From the sequence record OR786310.1: a stretch of 64,000 nt of DNA; one strand, 5' to 3'. The notes under the pieces are model-generated. The model was not told the DNA's origin, ran no database searches, and saw only the letters and a program-made list of their open reading frames with translations. This DNA comes from Escherichia phage ETEC-TG. The translations under genes were made by a program, and so were the position numbers. Shown here piece by piece: positions 3,309-45,595 of this stretch (the first letter of the stretch is position 1; every line of letters begins with the position of its first letter).

Positions 3309-3581
3309 CTAACACATTGAGGAAGAAGAGATCCAAACACCTCTTGTGGTTAAACCATTTTCATCCAACTCTACACCATAATCTTCACAAATGAAATCAA
3401 TATAGTGATCTGCGGCTGGCGTTCCTGTAGGGTAATAAGTTTCTCCGTTACCGTAGTCACCTATCCAAGCTTGTTCCTGAAACTGTTCACAAAGTTCTTC
3501 AATTTCCTTACGAAACTTTCTTTGTGCTTGTTCCATCTCTTTAACTTTCTTTTTTATCAGCAGTTCGCCTTCAGACTCCAC
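3309..3581 (-). CDS. small acidic protein, W-x-SSS-C tail family
   Basis: 90 aa ending RGVWISSSSMC; same C-terminal tail as two neighbouring ORFs. Confidence 0.45.
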   Translation of the reverse strand: MESEGELLIKKKVKEMEQAQRKFRKEIEELCEQFQEQAWIGDYGNGETYYPTGTPAADHYIDFICEDYGVELDENGLTTRGVWISSSSMC

Positions 3582-3590
3582 AATCCCTCC

Positions 3591-3809
3591 TTAACAGCTA
3601 CTACTGTGCCAAACGCCTTGAGAATTAACGACGAAACCATCATCACCTTCACCATAACAAGAAGAGGATTGCCAATCTTCAAAACAGATTGCGTCATTTT
3701 CTAAACTAAGACCAAAACCAGCATCTTCAGCTTCTTTTGTAAGTTCGTCCACTAAAGCCATAATAGCTTGGGCTTTTTCAGTTAATTCTTCAACATTACG
3801 ATCACTCAT
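3591..3809 (-). CDS. small acidic protein, W-x-SSS-C tail family
   Basis: Start taken at internal MSDRN; contains internal WQSSSC and ends QGVWHSSSC. Confidence 0.45.
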   Translation of the reverse strand: MSDRNVEELTEKAQAIMALVDELTKEAEDAGFGLSLENDAICFEDWQSSSCYGEGDDGFVVNSQGVWHSSSC

Positions 3810-4083
3810 TAGTATTTCTCCTCTGGTTGGAAAACTGAACGACAAGCCCACATACTAGCTTCTTTTAAATGTTTAATAGCACAACGGATTTGATCAATAC
3901 GTTCGTATGCAAGATCTAATTCTTTTTCTGTGCCGTCAAAAGACCCATGATATGCTTCACAATACTCTTCCTCTAAAGCTTTGAAGATTAAACCTAAACG
4001 CTCTTCTGCATCTTTAATAGCGTTAACCTTGCCAATCTTATCGTCAGTATGCGCCTTATAACCTTTGATATCTTCGATTCCCA
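3809..4083 (-). CDS. hypothetical protein (GTG start)
   Basis: TAGGAGGT then aaa then GTG gives VGIEDIKGY...; the ATG-extended form in the ORF track lacks an RBS and overlaps the upstream gene. Confidence 0.4.
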
Positions 4084-4095
4084 CTTTACCTCCTA

Positions 4096-4293
4096 TTAAC
4101 AACTTAAAGAAGATGGATGCCAATTTGTTCCAGTATTCTCATTTTCATCTTCTGGATCATAATAGCCACCCATCCCATATTCAGGGGAGAAACGGAAACC
4201 TTTACCAGTCTCATCTGCTAACTGCTCTGCTTCGGCTAAAGCCTCATAAGCTGCTTTTACGGCTTCTTCTACTGTTTTAAACTTGGTCGTCAT
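4096..4293 (-). CDS. small acidic protein, W-x-SSS-C tail family
   Basis: 65 aa ending TNWHPSSLSC. Confidence 0.45.
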   Translation of the reverse strand: MTTKFKTVEEAVKAAYEALAEAEQLADETGKGFRFSPEYGMGGYYDPEDENENTGTNWHPSSLSC

Positions 4294-4567
4294 AAAATTT
4301 CTCCTCTCCTAAAGACATGTTGACATGAAATGCACGATATGTAAATTCGTTGTCCGTTGTGTTTGAATAAAACTCAAATTGAACAACACCGTCTTGAGAA
4401 GACAGATACATGCCAATTTGAACTGTTCCTTCTGGTACCAGGTAAGCATACTCTGGACGTAGTGTTACATTGTAAAAATAAAGTTCCCCAACACCCATTT
4501 CATCCCAAGCTTCCCAAGCGGTAACGAAGTTACTTTCAAAACTTGTTACTGATCCGAACTCTGCCAT
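4277..4567 (-). CDS. hypothetical protein
   Basis: 96 aa ORF. Confidence 0.4.
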   Translation of the reverse strand: MAEFGSVTSFESNFVTAWEAWDEMGVGELYFYNVTLRPEYAYLVPEGTVQIGMYLSSQDGVVQFEFYSNTTDNEFTYRAFHVNMSLGEEKFYDDQV

Positions 4568-5058
4568 AAAACCTCCTCAATCTTGTAGTTTGACTCCATC
4601 TCCAACACATTTCCACGAACGTCTCTCCGAAGAAAGGCATAAGCTTTATTAGGTATTGTAGACTCATATTTAACCATATCTGGCACAGCAAAAGATACTA
4701 CTACTCCTGCTGGGCTTCTGTCAAGAGCCTTATTAATATTTCTAAGGATATCGTTAGCCAAGATTTCTGCCAATTCTCCAAGAACGGTTTCGGTTATATC
4801 TTTATATCCCATTAAGTATTTGTTGATATCTTTCATCTCTGTATTGTTCAGAGTATAATCCAAAGGATAGAAATTCAAAGCGGAGTCACTTTTATGTGTC
4901 CACATGAAATGCACCCGATCCGAGCAGAATCGTAACCCTCTTTGAAGAATATCTTCTACAACAGGCAGAATTTCTTTTGTCACATCATTAACCATGTTGT
5001 AATCTAAGATTTCTGCCAAGTTTGTTCTTTGTTCACCACGTTTACGTTTAGGAATCAC
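4546..5058 (-). CDS. hypothetical protein
   Basis: 170 aa ORF. Confidence 0.4.
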   Translation of the reverse strand: MIPKRKRGEQRTNLAEILDYNMVNDVTKEILPVVEDILQRGLRFCSDRVHFMWTHKSDSALNFYPLDYTLNNTEMKDINKYLMGYKDITETVLGELAEILANDILRNINKALDRSPAGVVVSFAVPDMVKYESTIPNKAYAFLRRDVRGNVLEMESNYKIEEVLWQSSDQ

Positions 5059-8303: not shown

Positions 8304-8813
8304 TTAAACAAAATAAAATGGTTGAGAGAGGCCCAAACGATTCTTTGGGTCGTATACATACCAAGCGTATGCTGTCTTATCTGTTCCACCTGCAACAAAC
8401 GAAGGCCGTTCTGAAAGGACTATAAGGTTTGTTGGTGGATTCTTTTGATGGAACTCTCGTCGTTTCTTTGACTCCAAGAAGCCCAACCGAAGAAGATAAA
8501 TACAAACATCCGCCTCTTTTAAGCTCTTTTCCAAGAACTCCATTGCTAACTTAAATGGAGGGTTTGTGATTATAATGTCGGGACGATTTTCCCATTCATG
8601 ACTAAAATAATCTTTACCTTCTTCAAGTTCGCAATATTCTGAACCTTCAGGAAAATGGCGATAAATCGCTTCAGCTTCACCTCTGCAAGGTTCTGCAAAA
8701 ACCCAACCTTCTTCCTTTAGATTTTTGAAATCTATAACACTAAACAAACTATTGATTGCTTTTTGCGGTGTCGGATAATAATCGCTCGTTGGGCGATCAT
8801 AATCTAATGCCAT
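8304..8813 (-). CDS. putative DNA methyltransferase (N6-adenine or N4-cytosine type)
   Basis: DYYPTPQ (AdoMet-binding-like) and NPPF (motif IV of amino-MTases) in a 169 aa protein. Confidence 0.55.
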   Translation of the reverse strand: MALDYDRPTSDYYPTPQKAINSLFSVIDFKNLKEEGWVFAEPCRGEAEAIYRHFPEGSEYCELEEGKDYFSHEWENRPDIIITNPPFKLAMEFLEKSLKEADVCIYLLRLGFLESKKRREFHQKNPPTNLIVLSERPSFVAGGTDKTAYAWYVYDPKNRLGLSQPFYFV

Positions 8814-9231
8814 CTAAAATCTCCTCTTTTGTAATATTATCCAACTCTTTAAAAGATGAAATCTCGTTTAATAATCCTATTTGATCAGCCTCTAGAGGAT
8901 AAGTGTTTTTATCTGTTTTTCTAGACAGAATATCTTCAACAAACTTATCAATAGCCAAAGAAGAATCATAAAATTTTAAAAGTTGGTAATCCATAGGAGA
9001 TATTTTATCATCTCTTAGAAATATTTCTAACATGTTTTCAGGAGTATCGTGGTTTAGTTTATGTTCACCAAAAATATTAACTTCGTAAACATCTTTGCCA
9101 AACCAACGTTTTTTCTTTTCAACAGTATAGGTTTTTGCCACCAGACCATCTAAACAGTTTCTTGCCCTCTTACATGTTTGACGGTAAGAGTGGATAGCGC
9201 CTTCAACAAACTTAGCAGGAACTTGTAACAT
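8797..9231 (-). CDS. hypothetical protein
   Basis: 144 aa ORF with RBS ATAGGAGA. Confidence 0.4.
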   Translation of the reverse strand: MLQVPAKFVEGAIHSYRQTCKRARNCLDGLVAKTYTVEKKKRWFGKDVYEVNIFGEHKLNHDTPENMLEIFLRDDKISPMDYQLLKFYDSSLAIDKFVEDILSRKTDKNTYPLEADQIGLLNEISSFKELDNITKEEILDGIRL

Positions 9232-9276
9232 TATTAATCTCCTATGTTTAAGAAATGCCCCCGAAGGGGCAGTTTG

Positions 9277-9969
9277 TTAAATAGCGGTTTCTTCGAAATC
9301 CGCCACATTTACGAGATTAATATTTTCAGATTTAGAAGTCAAGTTGTTTTCTGCAACAGATTTTTCTTCAGTATCCGCCTCGTTACCTGCCACGTTACGA
9401 GGTTCTTCTTCACCGTAGGGATTACCGAATTTCAAAAGATTGATTAATTCTTCTTTGGAGAAGTTTTCTAAATCATCATCTGTTAATTCAATAATCTCAT
9501 CTTGTTCTTCAATAAATGTTTCACCACCAGAAAAAGCATCTCGCTTTTTAGCTACTTCCATAGCCTGTTCTGGTGTTGCTCCTGCATCAAGAGCAGCTAA
9601 AGCAAAGTCTGACCCGCTTCCTACCGCATAATATTCTTCATCAATCGGATATGCACGTGTTGGGTTGTTACCTTCGTGCAGGAAAATACGTCCGTCTGGA
9701 TGAACAACAAGTGCAATAAACTCTTCATCTTCTTTATCTGGATCAGAGTGAATCATCAAACCAGGGACAGCATCACGTGCTGCTTCGCACTGTAGATTTT
9801 GTTCAAACCATTGAAAGAAAGAAAGCACGGAGGTCAGACGACCAGCACCACCTACAAGGTAATCTCCAATTTTTCGGACCTTTTTGAAATTAATAGAATC
9901 TACACGTCCACCAAAAGTTACCTTACCGTCACTCAAAATCTTATTTTTGGTCGCAATAATTGTCGTCAC
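9277..9969 (-). CDS. HslV-like (ClpQ) Ntn-hydrolase peptidase with acidic C-terminal extension
   Basis: MTTIIATKNKILSDGKVTFGG...KKVRK...GGAG...GSGSDFALAALDAG follows the HslV pattern (Thr2 nucleophile, GSG motif); about 90 extra D/E-rich residues at the C-terminus. Confidence 0.6.
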   Translation of the reverse strand: MTTIIATKNKILSDGKVTFGGRVDSINFKKVRKIGDYLVGGAGRLTSVLSFFQWFEQNLQCEAARDAVPGLMIHSDPDKEDEEFIALVVHPDGRIFLHEGNNPTRAYPIDEEYYAVGSGSDFALAALDAGATPEQAMEVAKKRDAFSGGETFIEEQDEIIELTDDDLENFSKEELINLLKFGNPYGEEEPRNVAGNEADTEEKSVAENNLTSKSENINLVNVADFEETAI

Positions 9970-10472
9970 TATTCTTCCTCCTCTGTTAATGTTTTAAGAA
10001 CCGCTTTCCCGCCATTCACATATTTGCAGATGTATTCTATCGCACGTAGTGTCTCTTTGTCAACAAAAATTTGATCAGACGTTGCGAGCGGGTTATTAAG
10101 AAGATCACTGCAATCACGAACAAGCAGTGCTTTCTTATTAAACAAATTACTTAAGAACAGTAACTTCGCCTCTTCTTCTGTTATGTGCAGAAGGCTAGGA
10201 TCGGAGCCAGCTATTCCTATTATACAATCAAACAAGCTTTCTTTACTATCAGAAAGTTCTTGAAAATGGTTTAAAAGCCAATCTTCTCCTAGACACCAAC
10301 ATTTAAACATTTCCAGTTTATCTCGGAGGGTCATATTCTCTAAAGTAAGAGCAATCTCTTTTTCAATATGGTTTACACAAATTTGACGAAATTCGTTAGG
10401 TTTTACGAGTCCCGTTTGATAGCACTCATCTATACCGCTTCTTCCGATAGCTATTGTTGCTACACCCATCAA
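9969..10472 (-). CDS. hypothetical protein
   Basis: 167 aa ORF. Confidence 0.4.
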   Translation of the reverse strand: MMGVATIAIGRSGIDECYQTGLVKPNEFRQICVNHIEKEIALTLENMTLRDKLEMFKCWCLGEDWLLNHFQELSDSKESLFDCIIGIAGSDPSLLHITEEEAKLLFLSNLFNKKALLVRDCSDLLNNPLATSDQIFVDKETLRAIEYICKYVNGGKAVLKTLTEEEE

Positions 10473-10504: not shown

Positions 10505-11264
10505 TTAAATAAACACTTCAGTAATCAGTTTAGACAAACGTCCACGTTTATTATCGTCCGTTGTCAGTTCAACATATCCAATAAAATCTACAATTGGCTC
10601 ACGAACACCTTCTTCATTCTCTGGATATAAAAGTTCCAAAATTTGATGCAGACCATTGCTACGTTTTTTAATTGCATATGTCTGGCGAACATCGCCTAAT
10701 ACAATAACATGCGTATTAATACCTGCACGTTCAATAAGAAGTTTAAGTGTTTCTGTTGACATAAGTTGTGCTTCGTCAATAATGACGATTGTATTATCCA
10801 GGGTAGCCCCCAACAAATAGTTAGGAATATTCAATTCGATCTTACCTGATCCAATATCGTTTTCCAATTTGTTGGCTGTCATGAATTGCTGGAAAATACG
10901 TTTTGTAGATTCATAGTGTGCTGCTAGTTTATCTGTTTTATCCCCAGACAAGAAACCAATCTGGTCATCTCCGACTTCAGTAGGGTTCTTGATAAAAAGT
11001 AGTTTACGGAAGTCTCCTGAACGAAGCATCTGCAAAGCTTTCCATAAAGCAACAGAGGTTTTACCAGTCCCTGCCGGAGCATTTACAACAGTCAGATCAT
11101 TCCAAATCATGCTTTGAACAATCTTATTTTGGTCCCCTTCAGGCATAAATTCATCTAAACGGTAATCGTCATTACCTACCGCTTTTGCTGCATAACGGCT
11201 TTCAATCTTTGCTGAATTAGCCAGTTTCTGCCGTTGTGTTTTAGCTGCGGTTTTATTTCCCATA
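10505..11264 (-). CDS. phoH: PhoH-like ATPase
   Basis: Walker A NAPAGTGKTSVAL and PhoH-like layout. Start moved to MGNKTAAK preceded by AAAAGGAG; the longer track ORF begins inside an upstream hairpin. Confidence 0.85.
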
Positions 11265-11300
11265 GTAGCACTCCTTTTAGAAGGGGCCGAAGCCCCTTTA

Positions 11301-11801
11301 TTAGTTGTAAGCATCTAAAGTTCCAGAAGTCAGAACTTTAATTACTCGTTCAGCACGGTTTGGCGTCTGGCTATACCATCGGCTTTTACGCATGTTTTTA
11401 CCTGCTTGAGTATAATATGCATTGCTGATTAAAGTCAAGCTATTTTGAAACCCTTCAGCACCTTTTAACCCCAACTGGAAAACCATGTTGATTATTCCCA
11501 ATTTACGAGTATCACTAACCTTATCATAGATTGGTGATAAGATAGTACTGTTTTTTATGTCTCTCTTCACTTTTGCAACATCGTCAGCAAAGATTTGACG
11601 GGCTTCTTTTTCTGTGATAACTCCATTAGTCTTACGACCAAGAAGATTATCTAAGATTTGAATAGCCTTTGCTTTATCTTTTATTTTAGTCAGAAGGTGT
11701 CCTATACCGACTGTCCAATAACCAAGATGGTCTTGATAAACAGTAAGCTTCAGTCCTTCATCGACTCGTAGCATATCAAACTCATCTACTACTTTAGCCA
11801 T
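11301..11801 (-). CDS. endolysin, T4-type lysozyme (GH24)
   Basis: N-terminus MAKVVDEFDMLRVDEGLKLTVYQDHLGYWTVGIGHLLTK matches the T4 lysozyme catalytic region (E11/D20/T26 context). Confidence 0.9.
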   Translation of the reverse strand: MAKVVDEFDMLRVDEGLKLTVYQDHLGYWTVGIGHLLTKIKDKAKAIQILDNLLGRKTNGVITEKEARQIFADDVAKVKRDIKNSTILSPIYDKVSDTRKLGIINMVFQLGLKGAEGFQNSLTLISNAYYTQAGKNMRKSRWYSQTPNRAERVIKVLTSGTLDAYN

Positions 11802-38720: not shown

Positions 38721-40796
38721 GTGGCAAAGAAAAAGGCAGCAGGTAGTTTAGCTGGAGTAGATATTGAAGTAAAGGCTCAACCAGGTAAACAGACTCTTGC
38801 AATGGATTTAATGCCAGAAGTTATGATTTATGGTGGTGCCGCTGGATGTGTTTCTGCTGAAACGGAATATCTTACAAAAGATGGTTGGAGGCAGATTAGT
38901 GAATATTCGGGAGAGGATATTTACCAATACAATCCTAAGAATAAGCGTTTAGAATTGGTAACACCTTATTTTGTAGAATACGATTTAAATGGAGATAACC
39001 TATACAGAATAACAAATGGTGTAGGATTATTCCAAGAACTTAGTATGGAACACCGTTTTGTATTCTATAAGAAAAAGAAATCAAAGAAACATTTCGAGAT
39101 TCTTGTAGGAGATCTTATTGCATTACAGCAAATAGGAAAACCCCTGCAAGGTTATGTAGAAAATCCATTCGGTAAACGTGTTCCTTTTAACATACCTGGT
39201 AAAAAGAGCACTTACTTAAAAATACACGAGGTTATTTCAACAGATGATAAGAAATATTGTTTTGAGACTCCAAGCAGCTATATTGTCTTTAGACGTGGCG
39301 ATCACTGCTTCGTTACTGGGAATAGCGGCAAGTCTCGTCTGCTATTGCTGAAAGCTTTAAAATACGCCTACAAAGACCCTTTGTTTGGTGGAATACTTTT
39401 CCGTAAGAACACCACTGCTCACCGTAAACCAGGTGGTCTGTTTACAGAAGCAAAACGTTTGTATCTTCCTTTACAACCACATGTAAAAGAAAGTACAATG
39501 GATATCATTTTTGAAGCCACTGGTGGTGGAACCCTCAAATTTGACCATTTGGAAAATGATAACGTAACAGCAGAAACAAACCATCAGGGTACACAGTATT
39601 CAATGGTAGGTTTTGACGAGTTAACCCACTTCACACAATATGAAATGCTCTATCTTCTGGGACGTATGCGTTCAGAGTCAGAAACAAGTTTCATGTTGTG
39701 CACATGTAACCCTGACGCAGATAGTTGGGTTTTGAATTGGGTGTTACCTTATCTTGATGAGGGTGGTTATCCTAGAGAAGATATGTGTGGTAAACAAAAA
39801 TATTTCATCATTGTTAACGATGAACCTGTTTTTGCTGACACACCTGAAGAACTGAAAGAAAAATATCCAGAAAACTGTTTCATGGAAAACCCTAATACAG
39901 GGGAGACAGTTGTTATTGAACCACAAACTTTCGTATTTATTGGTGGGACAATATTTGATAACCCAGAACTCATTAGGCTTAACCCTAATTACTTAGCACA
40001 GCTTAAATCACAAACAGCTATCAAAAGAGCACAGCTTCTGGACGGTTGTTGGTTTGCACGTATCCAGAAAGAATCTTTCTTTCAACGTGAATGGTTACAT
40101 AAAATATCTTATAAAGATGTTCCTAACAATCTTAAACTAATGCGAGCATGGGATAAAGCTGTTTCAGTTCCTACAGAAACTTACCGTTATCCAGACTATA
40201 CAACATCTGTCAAAATGGGTAAAGACCAAGATGGTAATATCTACATCTTTGGCGACTATGATTATGATGCTGTGGATGAGAAAAGTAAAATTTTCGGAAG
40301 GTTTCGAAGACTACCTGGGGAAAGGGATAACCTGATTCTAAATCAATGTAAGATTGATGGACCAGAAGTTACAGTAGTGCTTCCTAAAGACCCATCTGGT
40401 GCTGGGACAATAGAATACACAGAGTCTGCAAAGAAACTTATTCTAGAGGGTTTTGTTGTTAAACCAGATGCTATGCCAGGCAACAAGAAAAAACTTCAGC
40501 GTTTTATGCCTTTTAGTAGTGCGTGTCAAAACGGCTTTGTTTATATTGTTGAAGATTCTTTCCCTAATGTGGAAACTTTAACCCACTTTTATAAAGAATT
40601 GGAATCTTTCAATGGTGAAAGATCTACAGCCACTATTAAAGATGACATTCCCGATGCTGCTGCCTCTTGTTTTAATACTCTGTCAAAAGAGAATACTTTC
40701 AAAGCAGTAGCAATCCCTACAACAACAAATGCTCCTACAGGATACAGTAGAATGAACAGCGGATTTCACCAACCGTATAGTGTCCGTAAAAGATAA
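38721..40796 (+). CDS. terminase large subunit (interrupted by putative mini-intein)
   Basis: 691 aa; Walker A split as ...YGGAAG | C...N | SGKSRLLL; position after spanins and before portal. Confidence 0.8.
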   Translation: MAKKKAAGSLAGVDIEVKAQPGKQTLAMDLMPEVMIYGGAAGCVSAETEYLTKDGWRQISEYSGEDIYQYNPKNKRLELVTPYFVEYDLNGDNLYRITNGVGLFQELSMEHRFVFYKKKKSKKHFEILVGDLIALQQIGKPLQGYVENPFGKRVPFNIPGKKSTYLKIHEVISTDDKKYCFETPSSYIVFRRGDHCFVTGNSGKSRLLLLKALKYAYKDPLFGGILFRKNTTAHRKPGGLFTEAKRLYLPLQPHVKESTMDIIFEATGGGTLKFDHLENDNVTAETNHQGTQYSMVGFDELTHFTQYEMLYLLGRMRSESETSFMLCTCNPDADSWVLNWVLPYLDEGGYPREDMCGKQKYFIIVNDEPVFADTPEELKEKYPENCFMENPNTGETVVIEPQTFVFIGGTIFDNPELIRLNPNYLAQLKSQTAIKRAQLLDGCWFARIQKESFFQREWLHKISYKDVPNNLKLMRAWDKAVSVPTETYRYPDYTTSVKMGKDQDGNIYIFGDYDYDAVDEKSKIFGRFRRLPGERDNLILNQCKIDGPEVTVVLPKDPSGAGTIEYTESAKKLILEGFVVKPDAMPGNKKKLQRFMPFSSACQNGFVYIVEDSFPNVETLTHFYKELESFNGERSTATIKDDIPDAAASCFNTLSKENTFKAVAIPTTTNAPTGYSRMNSGFHQPYSVRKR
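38847..39323 (+). mobile_element. putative mini-intein in terminase P-loop
   Basis: 159 codons beginning with Cys (CVSAETEYLTKDGW) and ending with Asn before Ser; removal gives GGAAGSGKS; no homing-endonuclease domain. Confidence 0.6.
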
Positions 40797-40897
40797 TTGT
40801 TGACAAAAGTCACTTTAAAGTGTATTATAACTAGATAGGTGAGGTTGTATATAATACAGCCTTGCCTTAACGATTTTATACCTGACTGGAGGAACAA

Positions 40898-42463
40898 GTG
40901 TCAACAGGAAAAAGAACGTACACTAAAAAGTCAGAATACTGGGACAAAGGTGCTGCAAATAAAGCTGCTCTCTCTCCAACAAAAGAAGCAGAGAAAGAGA
41001 AAACGTTACTCCTGTCACCTGAAATAGGAACGATCGGATTAAACTCAATCAAAGCATTTACGAATTTCATGCAACCTTATGAGACTCGTTTCCCAGAATG
41101 TATTCGCACTTTTAAAGAGATGGGTGAAGACCCTGATGTAGCTACTGCTCTTGACGCTACATATATCTTTGTAGATAGAGCATTCTTTGATTTCAAGATA
41201 AAATACAATGTAAACTCGGCAAAGTCAAGAAAAGCTGCTAAGTTTATTGATTACATGTTACGCAATATGCAAGCCCCTCTACGTCAATATGTTAGATCAC
41301 TTTTGACATATAAGCAATATGGTTTTGCATTCGCAGAGAAAGTTTATGAGTTGGATGAAGATCCTAAAAGTCCTTACTTTGGGTATTGGCGATTAACCAA
41401 ACTGGCTTTTAGACCACAAGACACCCTTCACATGGCTCAACCTTTTACATATTCGGCAGACGGACGTTCTATTCTATCTGTTAACCAGAATATCACCAAT
41501 ACGATGTTAGCTCCAGGCAATACAACTTTAGAAACTGGTATTAAAGAAATTCCTTTCAGTAAAGTTTTATTTGTTGGTAGCAACATTACAGAGAATAACC
41601 CATTAGGAGTTAGTCCGCTTTTAGCTGTATATCGTAGCTGGCGTGAAAAATCTCTTATTCAGGAATTTGAGGTTATTGGGGTATCTAAAGATTTAGGCGG
41701 TATGCCAGTTCTTAAGGTTCCAAGTGACATTCTAAACAGGGCATCTTTAGATCCTGCGGGGGATGAAGCACAATCTCTTCGAGTTCTCCAAGCCAACATC
41801 GCTAACCTGCACTCTGGTGAGCAAGCCTACATGGTGTTGCCTTCAGACGTTTATGAAGGCACAGTGATGCGTCAATACGATCTTGTATTCCAAGGTGTTG
41901 ATGGCACGGGTAAACAGTTTGACACTCAAGCACTAATCAAACAACGTAAACTGGATATTTATAACCGCTTTGGTGCGGGTGTGTTGATTATGGGTGATGG
42001 TGACGCAGGAAGTTTTGCGCTTTCTGACAACAAACAAACACTATTGTCTCATTTTATTGAGCGAGATGTAGATATTGTTGTAGAAGCTATAAACTCTCAA
42101 CTGATCCCTCAAACACTACGACTAAACAATATCTTCCTTTCTGATGAAGATATGCCTAAATTTGTCAGTGGTGAAATGGGTGATCCTGATATTGAAGTAA
42201 ATGCTAAAGCTATTCAGCAGTTGGTAGCCTCTGGTGCAATACCTTTAACCCCAGAAGTTATTAACGAGTTTCTTGAAAAAATTGGTTTTGAATATCGCAT
42301 CCCTGATGATATTGTTGCCAATAAAGAGAAATTCTTTGAATTCATGGATAACTATATGCCTGACAAAACTTCACGATCAGGAGATGGTTTAGCTACAGCG
42401 GGAACTGGAACGTCTGATACTGTTTCTGCTCTAGATCCTTCAGCACAAAACCTGTCGAATTAA
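40898..42463 (+). CDS. portal protein
   Basis: 521 aa ORF directly downstream of the large terminase; size and position typical of portal. Confidence 0.6.
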   Translation: MSTGKRTYTKKSEYWDKGAANKAALSPTKEAEKEKTLLLSPEIGTIGLNSIKAFTNFMQPYETRFPECIRTFKEMGEDPDVATALDATYIFVDRAFFDFKIKYNVNSAKSRKAAKFIDYMLRNMQAPLRQYVRSLLTYKQYGFAFAEKVYELDEDPKSPYFGYWRLTKLAFRPQDTLHMAQPFTYSADGRSILSVNQNITNTMLAPGNTTLETGIKEIPFSKVLFVGSNITENNPLGVSPLLAVYRSWREKSLIQEFEVIGVSKDLGGMPVLKVPSDILNRASLDPAGDEAQSLRVLQANIANLHSGEQAYMVLPSDVYEGTVMRQYDLVFQGVDGTGKQFDTQALIKQRKLDIYNRFGAGVLIMGDGDAGSFALSDNKQTLLSHFIERDVDIVVEAINSQLIPQTLRLNNIFLSDEDMPKFVSGEMGDPDIEVNAKAIQQLVASGAIPLTPEVINEFLEKIGFEYRIPDDIVANKEKFFEFMDNYMPDKTSRSGDGLATAGTGTSDTVSALDPSAQNLSN

Positions 42464-42556
42464 AAATATTTAATATTTTTTAATTTTTCTATTGACAAAA
42501 CAACAAATATCCTGTAGACTAAGATTTATGGGATATCTGTTTTTAAGAGGTTTCAA

Positions 42557-43036
42557 ATGGAACTCAATAAAGATACACTGTGGGAACTCTTCAAAACCTT
42601 CGCTGGTTTTAAAGAGAATTCTGAATCCCAACAAGATTCTATACCATCTCAAAAACCTGAAACTCTAGTCAAACAAAATAAATTTGATGAAGAAAAGATG
42701 CAGGTTATTGAGGTCTTGTATTGTCCACCTGAAGAAGACGATCTCCACGGAGAGCGCATGTCTGATTTGGAAATCAGGAAGATGGTTGACAACTTCAATG
42801 AGAATATTACCAATATTAGCGGTAATCTTGGTCATATGAAGAACACCGATAAGTTTGCTCCAATTAAAGCTTGGGTAAATGAAGTCGATTGTTACATTGG
42901 TGACGAACTCGTTGTGGAAGGAACTCCCCTCGTTAAAATCCAATTCAACGACCCTGAATTATATCAAGCTCGTAAAGACGGCGTTCTTAAAGGTTTGAGT
43001 ATAGGCGCAATGGGCGTTAAAGTCAAGAAGGACTAA
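42557..43036 (+). CDS. hypothetical head morphogenesis protein
   Basis: 159 aa ORF between portal and scaffold genes. Confidence 0.4.
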   Translation: MELNKDTLWELFKTFAGFKENSESQQDSIPSQKPETLVKQNKFDEEKMQVIEVLYCPPEEDDLHGERMSDLEIRKMVDNFNENITNISGNLGHMKNTDKFAPIKAWVNEVDCYIGDELVVEGTPLVKIQFNDPELYQARKDGVLKGLSIGAMGVKVKKD

Positions 43037-43038
43037 TC

Positions 43039-44154
43039 GTGGCAAATACATATTTAACTAACGTAGACTTTTCAGGAAAAGCTACGGAAGAGTCACTAGG
43101 TGCTCATATTGCTTACACTTTTGATTTTCAAGGTGGAGCGGCATCTGGTTATAATACCCCCCTTTTATTTAAGTCAGACGGATCTCCAGACATAACTTTT
43201 GAAAAGTTAGAAGCTCTCACTAAAATGGGAGAAGATGTTACAGAGTTACGTAAAAGCTATATTCAACAAGTGATGGATCGCATTTCTGAAAAAGTGCGTG
43301 AAAAATTTGAAGCTGGTTGGGATTGGGTTTACGTTATTGATGCTGACTTCGATGCGAACGTTGCAATTTTCTGTTCAGATAACGGTATGTTCTCTGTTGG
43401 CTTTAAAGTTGACGGACTGAATGTTGAAGTTGAAGAGGTTGCTAAACCTGTTGTTCGTGTTACTGATTATCAAGTTGTTGATGGTGATGTAATGATCTCC
43501 ATTGATTTCTTTGAGGACGTTTTAGACGATGCTTTGAGTAATCTCGTTAAGAGTTCCTTGAAACAAAGTCAAGTTAAAGATTATTTAGTGAAAGCTCACG
43601 CTAAAGCTAATACAAACTCTGTGGATGCAGAGGCTAACCCCGCAGGTGATAAATCTGCAAACACAACTGGAATCAATAAAGGAGAAACCCCTTTGGAAAA
43701 TATCAACAAAGAAGAATTCCTGAAATCTGCTGAATTCCAAGAACTGATGAAAGCACAGATCGCTGAAGCTGTAGAAAAAGCAGCAGCAGATGCACGTGCA
43801 GCCGCAGAACTTGAAGCACAGGAAAAAATCGCTAAGGCAGAACAGGAAGCAGAAGAACTTCGTAAAGCTGAACAAGCTCGTATCGAAGAAGAATATACAA
43901 CTGTTGTTAAATCCTATTCTTTCGTAGAAGAAGACAAAGTTGAAGCTCTCGTTAAATATCTGGTAGACAATAAAGATATCGCTGAAACTATCGTCAAAGC
44001 ATTCGAAAAAGCACGTGCAGAAGTGGACGCAGTTAAGAAAGAATTTGGAACAGAACGTGGTGTTGACGTGATCAATACTCAACCTGTAGCTAAATCTTCT
44101 TCTGAACTGATTAGTCAGAAAGCTGCTGAACTTAAAAAAGCCCAGAAACAATAA
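43039..44154 (+). CDS. putative head scaffolding protein
   Basis: GTG start after RBS; 371 aa, acidic, long A/E/K-rich helical C-terminus (AAADARAAAELEAQEKIAKAEQEAEEL). Confidence 0.5.
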   Translation: MANTYLTNVDFSGKATEESLGAHIAYTFDFQGGAASGYNTPLLFKSDGSPDITFEKLEALTKMGEDVTELRKSYIQQVMDRISEKVREKFEAGWDWVYVIDADFDANVAIFCSDNGMFSVGFKVDGLNVEVEEVAKPVVRVTDYQVVDGDVMISIDFFEDVLDDALSNLVKSSLKQSQVKDYLVKAHAKANTNSVDAEANPAGDKSANTTGINKGETPLENINKEEFLKSAEFQELMKAQIAEAVEKAAADARAAAELEAQEKIAKAEQEAEELRKAEQARIEEEYTTVVKSYSFVEEDKVEALVKYLVDNKDIAETIVKAFEKARAEVDAVKKEFGTERGVDVINTQPVAKSSSELISQKAAELKKAQKQ

Positions 44155-44173
44155 TCTTAGGAGATTAAATTAA

Positions 44174-44572
44174 ATGGCTAAAGGAATTACTTTATCTAAC
44201 TCTCGCCAGGAATTCGGACACCTGGTTCTGGGTGGAGTGTTTAGCTCTGACCTTGGACACTGTGTACGTGAAGTTAACCTGGTTAAAACAGCAACCATGA
44301 AAATTGGTTCTATCCTGAAAGCTGACAACACTGAAGCTGCTAAAGCTGAAGCTGCCGATGCTGCTAAAGTTCTGATTTGGACTGATGCTCTGTTCGGTAT
44401 TGACGATGTAGCAGTAGGTGACACTTTCACCGCAGTTGTTGGCGTACGTGATCTTACTCTGAACCGCTTTGCAGTATACTACAAAGATGGCTCCCTTGTA
44501 GATGAAGCTGGCGTAGCAGCACTGGAAACACATGATCTGAAACTGACCGAAAAAGTCGTTTTCACTTCTTAA
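44174..44572 (+). CDS. putative head decoration protein
   Basis: 132 aa ORF immediately upstream of major capsid gene (lambda D/E-like arrangement), RBS TAGGAGA, host-optimal codons. Confidence 0.45.
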   Translation: MAKGITLSNSRQEFGHLVLGGVFSSDLGHCVREVNLVKTATMKIGSILKADNTEAAKAEAADAAKVLIWTDALFGIDDVAVGDTFTAVVGVRDLTLNRFAVYYKDGSLVDEAGVAALETHDLKLTEKVVFTS

Positions 44573-44593
44573 TTTTAATAGGAGATTAATATA

Positions 44594-45595
44594 ATGCCAG
44601 CAGTAATTTTAGATCAGGTTGTAGATTTCAGCCCTATGATCGAACTTCAGGATTCCCCTGATACACTGATTGCCAGCCTGAATCTGTTCAGTGTTGACTA
44701 TCATTCAACTACCGCTATTGAAATCGGTAAAGAAAAAGCTGAAGATGCTCTGATCTCCGCTCGTGAGCGTGGTGGTGAGCGTAACTTCCTGAGCATGAAA
44801 AATCCAGAACTGAAAGCGTTCCGCATTCCGTTCTTCCCTCTGGATAAAAACATCAAAGCTCAAGATATTCAATCTTTCCGTAGCTTTGCAATGGCAGGAA
44901 TCAATGACTCTCTGCGCACAGACGCTGAAGTTGTTAACCGCTATATGTCCCAGATTCTGCGTGACGTAGCAAAAACCAAAGAGAAAATCTTTGCAGAAGC
45001 AGTTATGGGTCGTGCCTATAACGGCGTAGGTGGTGCAGCTAACTCTGCATACAACTGGTATACCGAATGGGGTGCTACCCAGAAATCTGTTGCTGTAGAC
45101 TTTGCTTCTACCACTGTTTCTCCAGCAGCCACTATCGAGAAAGAAGCTCGTGCTTACATCATCGATACTAAACAAGATGGCTCTACCGCTACTCGTATCG
45201 TAGCTCTGTGTTCTCGTGAATTTTTCGCATCTCTGGTTAACTCTCCATTTGTTCGCCAGGCATATCAGTATTTCCAGGGAACTCCTAACCTTCTGCGTGA
45301 TCGCCTTAGCGGTAACATGGATGTTCAGGTGTTCGAATGGAACGGTGTAACTTACATTGAAGATATCCACGGTAACATCCCTGCTGGTGAAGCATATGTT
45401 CTGCCTATGGGTATCGAAGGTATGTTCCAGGCGCACTACGCTCCTGCGGATACTCCAGAACTGGCTAACACCCAGGCTCGTGAACTGTATACCTTCATGA
45501 TCAGCCAGCACCGCACTATTCAGCTTCAGTCTGAATTCTCGCTGCTCGCAGTTAACACCCGTCCAGAACTGGTAGTTAAACTGACTACGGCTTAA
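44594..45595 (+). CDS. major capsid protein
   Basis: 333 aa, strong RBS, highly biased codon usage, followed by a terminator; position after scaffold/decoration genes. Confidence 0.7.
   Translation: MPAVILDQVVDFSPMIELQDSPDTLIASLNLFSVDYHSTTAIEIGKEKAEDALISARERGGERNFLSMKNPELKAFRIPFFPLDKNIKAQDIQSFRSFAMAGINDSLRTDAEVVNRYMSQILRDVAKTKEKIFAEAVMGRAYNGVGGAANSAYNWYTEWGATQKSVAVDFASTTVSPAATIEKEARAYIIDTKQDGSTATRIVALCSREFFASLVNSPFVRQAYQYFQGTPNLLRDRLSGNMDVQVFEWNGVTYIEDIHGNIPAGEAYVLPMGIEGMFQAHYAPADTPELANTQARELYTFMISQHRTIQLQSEFSLLAVNTRPELVVKLTTA

Follow-up and report, generated by a model that had tools for sequence, protein, structure and literature searches.

What kind of enzyme is the HslV-like peptidase encoded by Escherichia phage ETEC-TG, and does it work together with the HslU of its host? 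The gene lies on the minus strand of the 64,000-nucleotide stretch of sequence record OR786310.1 that was analysed (the window). The window comes from a Phapecoctavirus (phAPEC8-like, Stephanstirmvirinae), an E. coli myophage that, over 4 kb, shares 99.5-99.8% identity with BI-EHEC, anhysbys, ESCO5 and others. An earlier note on this DNA had described a proteasome-type, HslV-like peptidase with a long acidic C-terminal extension, and had proposed that it could pair with host HslU while the tail replaces or modulates the docking surface. We find a real gene of an already known kind, and the pairing with HslU is the weakest part of that note. The product belongs to the proteasome/HslV superfamily (MEROPS T1, N-terminal nucleophile (Ntn) hydrolases), with the fold and the complete active-site set. 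It has lost helix H2 of HslV and carries acidic residues in place of the basic pore cluster. Canonical docking to HslU, or coupling through it, is unlikely judging from the sequence and the structure model. The gene and its core are arranged as follows (pLDDT, predicted local distance difference test).

9277..9969, minus strand: coding sequence of the peptidase, 230 residues, GTG start, TAA stop at 9277..9279
9977..9983, minus strand: Shine-Dalgarno sequence GAGGAGG, 7 nt ahead of the GTG, read directly from the sequence
9964..9966, minus strand: ACG codon of Thr2, the predicted N-terminal nucleophile after removal of Met
9502..9969, minus strand: Ntn-hydrolase core, residues 1-156, AlphaFold model with pLDDT mostly above 90

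The Shine-Dalgarno sequence, a strong one, sets the N-terminus as Met-Thr-Thr. The open reading frame (ORF) contains the N-terminus MTTIIATKNK, KKVRK (29-33), GGAG (40-43) and GSGSDFALAALDAG (117-130), just as first described. Its product narrowly passes the threshold of Pfam PF00227 (Proteasome; 25.6 bits, E=1.1e-5; gathering score 22.4), and it matches PHROG 1040 'peptidase HslV family' as a full-length profile over residues 1-229 (E=4.5e-63). The best solved relative by sequence is the HslV of T. maritima (E=4.9e-9). A profile of 63 relatives matches HslVs (1e-14 to 4e-11) as well as beta5 subunits (about 1e-10). The core has the Ntn alpha-beta-beta-alpha fold that is characteristic of the superfamily. 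T2, D14, K30, G40/G43 and S118-G119 align with HslV Thr1, Asp17, Lys33, Gly45/Gly48 and Ser124-Gly125, and in an alignment with relatives and E. coli HslV the catalytic residues are invariant or nearly so, even at about 30% identity (T2 is unchanged in 24 of 24 aligned relatives). An MTT N-terminus likewise recurs across relatives. The Thr/Lys/Ser set, whose loss the earlier note had named as fatal to its proposal, is thus retained as T2, K30 and S118, and sequence, profile and fold all uphold an HslV-like Ntn peptidase with Thr2 as the nucleophile. The protein has no propeptide, and E. coli HslV likewise starts MTTIVS. Methionine aminopeptidase accepts Thr at position 2. As for E. coli HslV, loss of the first Met would free Thr2 as the nucleophile.

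The core departs from HslV in the region that HslU contacts. The C-termini of HslU enter pockets between HslV subunits, and these pockets are lined by Phe54, Phe57, Gln114 and Ala79/Lys80 (PMC6429459). HslV also has a basic cluster, Arg86/Arg89/Lys90, at the pore entrance. This cluster rearranges on HslU binding, and its mutation severely cuts activity (PMC5777263). The AlphaFold monomer model of the phage peptidase has a single long helix H1 at residues 45-67, followed by coil at residues 68-83 (pLDDT 79-94), and the next strand starts from residue 84. The coil occupies the place of H2 and of the basic pore cluster. It is just 2-3 residues shorter than the H2 region of E. coli HslV, so H2 has been replaced rather than deleted. 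The segment, and the phage residues that correspond to the docking residues of HslV, are:

9721..9768, minus strand: residues 68-83, VPGLMIHSDPDKEDEE, a non-helical acidic segment with two prolines and one glycine, net charge -5
HslV F57, E61 and R35: phage F52, E56 and R32, kept
HslV F54: phage L49, changed
HslV Q114: phage R105, changed
HslV A79/K80: phage H74/S75, within the coil
HslV R86/R89/K90: phage K79/E82/E83, with D or E at the position of E82 in 24 of 24 relatives
HslV K28: phage S25, a variable serine

The pocket for the HslU C-terminal tail (H1/H2) together with the basic cluster, the combination that marks an HslV, is not found in the phage peptidase. By this residue mapping, half of the canonical HslU docking surface is missing or charge-reversed. 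A comparable case is BPH (Betaproteobacteria proteasome homologue), a descendant of HslV in which the HslU-interface residues are lost, an acidic pore loop is gained, and no HslU is recovered by pull-down (PMC5777263). The absence of H2 is itself a published trait. The PPH/RPC proteasome homologues were defined in silico by Fuchs, Alva and Lupas (2021, Bioinformatics 37:4694), and that paper describes them as uniquely without the second helix H2 while H1, H3, H4 and the catalytic triad are kept, giving WP_042125023.1 and WP_140207863 as representatives (PMC8665760). The phage peptidase likewise lacks H2, keeps H1, H3, H4 and the triad, and is encoded by tailed phages. It fits the PPH/RPC type by these features and by the profile results rather than by co-clustering.

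Could the gene nevertheless be an hslV taken from a host? The phage peptidase is 27% identical to HslV of E. coli, its host. It fails both NCBIfam HslV equivalogs, NF003964 (32.2 bits against a cut-off of 137) and TIGR03692 (31.4 against 157.75), so that it misses by more than 100 bits the standard of HslV proper under the profile alignment that had been suggested as a check. The family is present in 235 phage records, from phages of Escherichia, Vibrio, Caulobacter, Aeromonas, Klebsiella, Rhizobium, Shewanella and others. With E. coli HslV as the query, 14 records of the phage collection are found, and the matches listed are HslV copies of 52-98% identity in short unannotated or bacterial contigs. 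Across the genomes of 185,579 species (one each), the sole close match is a 425-bp contig. The rest are 25-44% identical, and among these only short segments exceed about 30%. The contig, JAPMLR010000072.1 of a 'Lysobacteraceae bacterium' assembly, is 100% identical to part of the phage peptidase gene and is most likely phage contamination of the bacterial assembly. Among 1.84 billion representatives, 63 proteins match the family profile at E<=1e-30; they are mostly 180-350 residues long and tail-bearing. Below these 63 comes a large population of tail-less proteins of 137-160 residues that score 100-127 bits and also start MTTI, while solved HslVs score just 46-58 bits. The profile and genome searches therefore place the peptidase in a phage-specific lineage whose nearest relatives are PPH-type proteins of about 140 residues rather than HslV. 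As far as sequence comparison tells, the phage did not gain it by capturing hslV from a host.

Public sources already contain the gene, its annotation in the HslV family and the family of phage proteasome homologues without H2. Genes that are 99-100% identical are named 'peptidase HslV family', 'HslV family peptidase' or 'ATP-dependent protease subunit' in several Phapecoctavirus records, for example JR321_gp185 of Escherichia phage anhysbys (RefSeq). A literature search returned only annotation-level mentions of these phage peptidases and no experimental study of them. An assignment to defence or anti-defence was tried and dropped, as PADLOC gave no matches.

The acidic extension claimed by the earlier note is present, at 74 residues (157-230) in the model instead of about 90. 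It contains 28% D/E and has a net charge of -16. It consists of two parts:

9424..9501, minus strand: proximal tail, residues 157-182, DEIIELTDDDLENFSKEELINLLKFG, two predicted helices at 164-169 and 172-181, pLDDT 85-91
9280..9423, minus strand: distal tail, residues 183-230, acidic and fast-evolving, for the most part disordered (pLDDT under 50 at 190-209 and 211-214)

The proximal part carries the motif [DE]Ex[VIL][ED][IL][TS]x[ED]..[FLM][ST][KR]E[EQ]L[LIV] (short form LTxE..[ST]KE[EQ]L). The motif is conserved in Justusliebigvirus, in Klebsiella phage FBKp34, and in relatives from Aeromonas and Vibrio phages at just 32-35% overall identity. The distal part is 13% identical to the query among close relatives whose cores are 77% identical, and in nearly every close relative the tail keeps a net charge of -5 to -17. 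No Pfam domain was found in the tail of the window peptidase. Longer relatives (L006 3001..3831, 2L372D 4001..4885, P0133 and P0166) end in a Rho_N/HeH-like motif, e.g. DVNELRDICDDMQITYSKSNTQQQLIQKI. The Rho_N match (E=4e-4, 20.7 bits) is under the gathering score of 24.9, and the motif is absent from the window protein. Other longer relatives have a Cys-rich segment after an acidic linker. Since relatives add modules or have no tail, the tail is a modular add-on in which one element is conserved and probably structured. Aeromonas phage 2L372D has two adjacent proteasome-like genes, 3432..3983 and 4001..4885. The first encodes 183 residues with an MTCIIAL start and GCG in place of GSG, and the second encodes 294 residues and bears a tail. 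This pair could be a two-subunit arrangement.

The reading that we favour, at a little better than an even chance, is a proteasome homologue of PPH/RPC type and phage lineage: a ring peptidase that lacks canonical HslU docking and in which the acidic loop and the tail capture substrates or a partner. Host methionine aminopeptidase would expose Thr2, and the protein would assemble into a ring-shaped, self-compartmentalising particle, an N-terminal-threonine peptidase at work in the host cytoplasm during infection. It would probably be expressed alongside the block of PhoH and nucleotide-metabolism genes and not with the head genes. By analogy with BPH, the particle most likely works without canonical HslU docking. 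The disordered acidic tail would project from it beyond the conserved two-helix element, and the pore-side loops and tails together would make the particle strongly negative (-25 per subunit). Such a particle would favour basic or unfolded polypeptides, or a partner that is bound through the conserved tail helix. Several points weigh against this reading. Segment 68-83 could become ordered in an oligomer, which would be invisible to a monomer model. Some H1-side residues are retained, namely the equivalents of R35, F57 and E61. The role given to the acidic tail is read from composition alone. BPH, the closest HslU-independent analogue, is inert in standard peptidase assays (PMC5777263), and an active peptidase is therefore not guaranteed.

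Among the alternatives, the one that survives best is that the phage peptidase takes over from host HslV or adds to it, docking the HslU of the host as a hybrid ATP-dependent protease and redirecting host or phage proteolysis while the tail modulates docking. We consider it unlikely. The best solved homologues are indeed HslVs, the MTTI N-terminus and the residues R35, F57 and E61 are common to E. coli HslV, and most of the listed hosts are Proteobacteria, where HslV occurs (Fuchs et al.). The host E. coli carries hslU, while neither HslU nor any other unfoldase of the phage's own is found in the part of the genome that was covered. No HslU-like gene adjoins that of the peptidase. In the examined two-thirds of the anhysbys genome, the only annotated AAA+ gene is gp074; it was considered as a partner unfoldase and rejected, with weak AAA/clamp-loader-like matches and a C-terminus (...TTLGSVF) without an HbYX or HslU-type motif. 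These points are set against the loss of H2, with which A79/K80 of the pocket for the HslU C-terminal tail are gone, and against the replacement of R86/R89/K90, the cluster that responds to HslU binding, by residues of reversed charge that are conserved as acidic. The equivalog scores of about 32 bits against cut-offs of 137 and 158 also speak against a hybrid, as does the loss of interface residues in BPH, which is accompanied by an absence of HslU from pull-downs (PMC5777263). The wider PPH family is found in Actinobacteria too, where HslV is absent (Fuchs et al., Table 1, PMC8665760), and a Gordonia phage has a proteasome-fold protein. Of the Escherichia phage records in the phage collection, 106 carry the phage peptidase gene and only 4 have an HslU-like match. 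Pairing with host HslU thus remains unsupported: the protein lies more than 100 bits below the equivalogs, has no H2, has a charge-reversed pore cluster and belongs to a phage-specific lineage. The HslU-like genes of the phage collection are mainly those of Erwinia and Salmonella jumbo phages, plus contaminating host contigs. In Erwinia jumbo phages such as vB_EamM_Special G (BFVD A0A191ZBV1), an HslU-like ATPase gene occurs together with a proteasome-fold protein, and unlike the window phage these may encode a complete phage HslUV-like pair.

The conserved helix of the tail recurs in a neighbouring gene, which bears on a second alternative.

8797..9231, minus strand: ORF144 (phrog_15078, unknown function), downstream of the peptidase gene, with the conserved C-terminus NITKEEILDGIRL at 8806..8835

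A regular expression that had first been built on the peptidase's conserved tail helix (NFSKEELINLLKF) matches the C-terminus of ORF144 (...FKELDNITKEEILDGIRL, followed by the stop). Over all open frames of the window, it finds the peptidase tail and the ORF144 C-terminus only. Nothing else matched in open frames of 37 phage and bacterial records, which amount to 316,212 residues. The C-terminal motif of ORF144 is TKEE[IL]L, and T-K-E-E-x-L is invariant in six ORF144 homologues. From the match together with this invariance, it follows that the adjacent peptidase and ORF144 genes share a conserved helical motif. The motif could be a docking element, to judge from its sequence, and the helix that is shared with ORF144 is the one lead here that may be new.

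This shared helix is also part of the case for a non-degradative role, either as an enzyme for sequence-specific processing or transpeptidation (connectase is of this kind) or as a catalytically latent scaffold whose tail helix recruits, for example, ORF144. The superfamily includes a ligase, connectase. BPH shows no activity in standard assays, even very distant relatives keep the tail helix motif, and this motif recurs at the invariant ORF144 C-terminus and nowhere else in the residues searched. Even so, such a role appears more doubtful than a hybrid with HslU. A third alternative is a decoy that poisons host HslV rings by co-assembly, or that titrates HslU or another host factor through its acidic tail, and so inhibits host proteolysis. 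The protein is homologous to HslV, and its very acidic disordered tail could mimic nucleic acid or a degron. With 27% identity to host HslV and an altered apical architecture, however, co-assembly is unlikely, and a decoy could do without a full set of catalytic residues that is invariant across lineages of about 30% identity. We regard it as very improbable.

The other neighbours of the peptidase gene, and the signals around it, are:

9969..10472, minus strand: ORF167 (phrog_14834, unknown function), upstream, with a stop/start overlap with the peptidase gene
10505..11314, minus strand: PhoH-like ATPase gene, upstream of the peptidase in Stephanstirmvirinae
9256..9271, minus strand: terminator-like GC-rich hairpin TGCCCCTTCGGGGGCA, then TTTCTT, 5 nt past the peptidase stop

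The GTG of the peptidase overlaps the TAG stop of ORF167 as TAGTG, and the two genes are predicted from this arrangement to be translationally coupled. ORF167 occurs only in Stephanstirmvirinae-like phages. It is modelled with confidence as entirely helical, and no structure or family matches it. At 10034..10063 on the minus strand, within the 3' part of ORF167 and about 65 nt upstream of the peptidase GTG, stands a sigma-70-type promoter sequence close to consensus (TTGACA-18-TAGAAT, 11/12 matches). The total of promoter-like sites in the peptidase region is not above that of shuffled sequence. The order PhoH - ORF167 - peptidase is kept in Phapecoctavirus, Justusliebigvirus and FBKp34. In Stephanstirmvirinae, Aeromonas 2L372D and Vibrio 1.084.O, PhoH lies within 0.5-2.7 kb of the peptidase; Caulobacter phage Karma does not show this proximity, and the linkage may be simply inherited synteny. 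The peptidase gene stands within a long minus-strand block of early/middle type, with genes for the PhoH-like ATPase, a lysozyme, glutaredoxin, NrdAB, ThyX, DNA methyltransferases and a Ser/Thr phosphatase.

That the peptidase is the capsid (prohead) maturation protease is barely credible: it is a protease encoded by a large myovirus, and the RefSeq record of anhysbys annotates no head maturation protease, but the head module (window 38721-45595) is about 33 kb away on the opposite strand from the peptidase in its PhoH/Nrd/ThyX block, a 159-residue ORF immediately after the portal gene (42557..43036, plus strand) has an anhysbys orthologue that matches head-maturation-protease PHROGs (phrog_3017, E=2.5e-12), and we know of no prohead protease with the proteasome fold. 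The anhysbys orthologue of this ORF is annotated 'DNA methyltransferase' (best match phrog_1530). Going by these matches, the ORF is probably the prohead protease and the annotation probably wrong.

The favoured PPH/RPC-type reading can be carried further, to a speculative proposal that we hold to be rather improbable as a whole. The tail-bearing clade would be an HslU-independent, extremely acidic protease particle, and the tail helix would be a docking element shared with ORF144. The peptidase and ORF144, possibly with ORF167, would then form a phage-specific protease/adaptor system that captures particular host proteins, probably basic or nucleic-acid-binding ones, during takeover.

Peptidases of the proteasome fold are widespread among large phages, and the fold is found in 47 viral structure clusters. 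If active, the peptidase would be a phage-encoded compartmentalised protease in the infected cell, with candidate roles in host takeover, in recycling of host protein, or in removal of defence or regulatory proteins. That it is probably no drop-in substitute for HslV changes which experiments are worthwhile, compared with taking an HslU complex for granted.

How does the phage peptidase compare with known systems? The genes of PHROG 1040 and RefSeq show no sequence difference from the window gene, and it is their name that would imply an HslV function. Bacterial HslV (ClpQ) is 27-33% identical, whereas the phage peptidase is without H2 and without a linked hslU and has a 74-residue tail. Its net charge is -25 (isoelectric point 4.3), against -3 (isoelectric point 6.0) for E. 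coli HslV. BPH (PDB 5ovs/5ovu) is bacterial, forms heptameric rings, retains H2 and has no C-terminal tail, and its sequence similarity to the phage peptidase is negligible (E=1). With the PPH/RPC homologues, as described in the available portion of Fuchs et al., the phage peptidase has in common that it is phage-encoded, a group-I homologue near HslV and BPH, with the Thr1/Asp17/Lys33 triad, no propeptide and no H2. In that same text, PPH measures about 140 residues, against a 156-residue core plus the 74-residue tail in the phage peptidase. RPC has a C-terminal extension but is reported there from Proteobacteria only, not from phages, and the two-helix tail motif of the phage peptidase is absent from that description of PPH/RPC.
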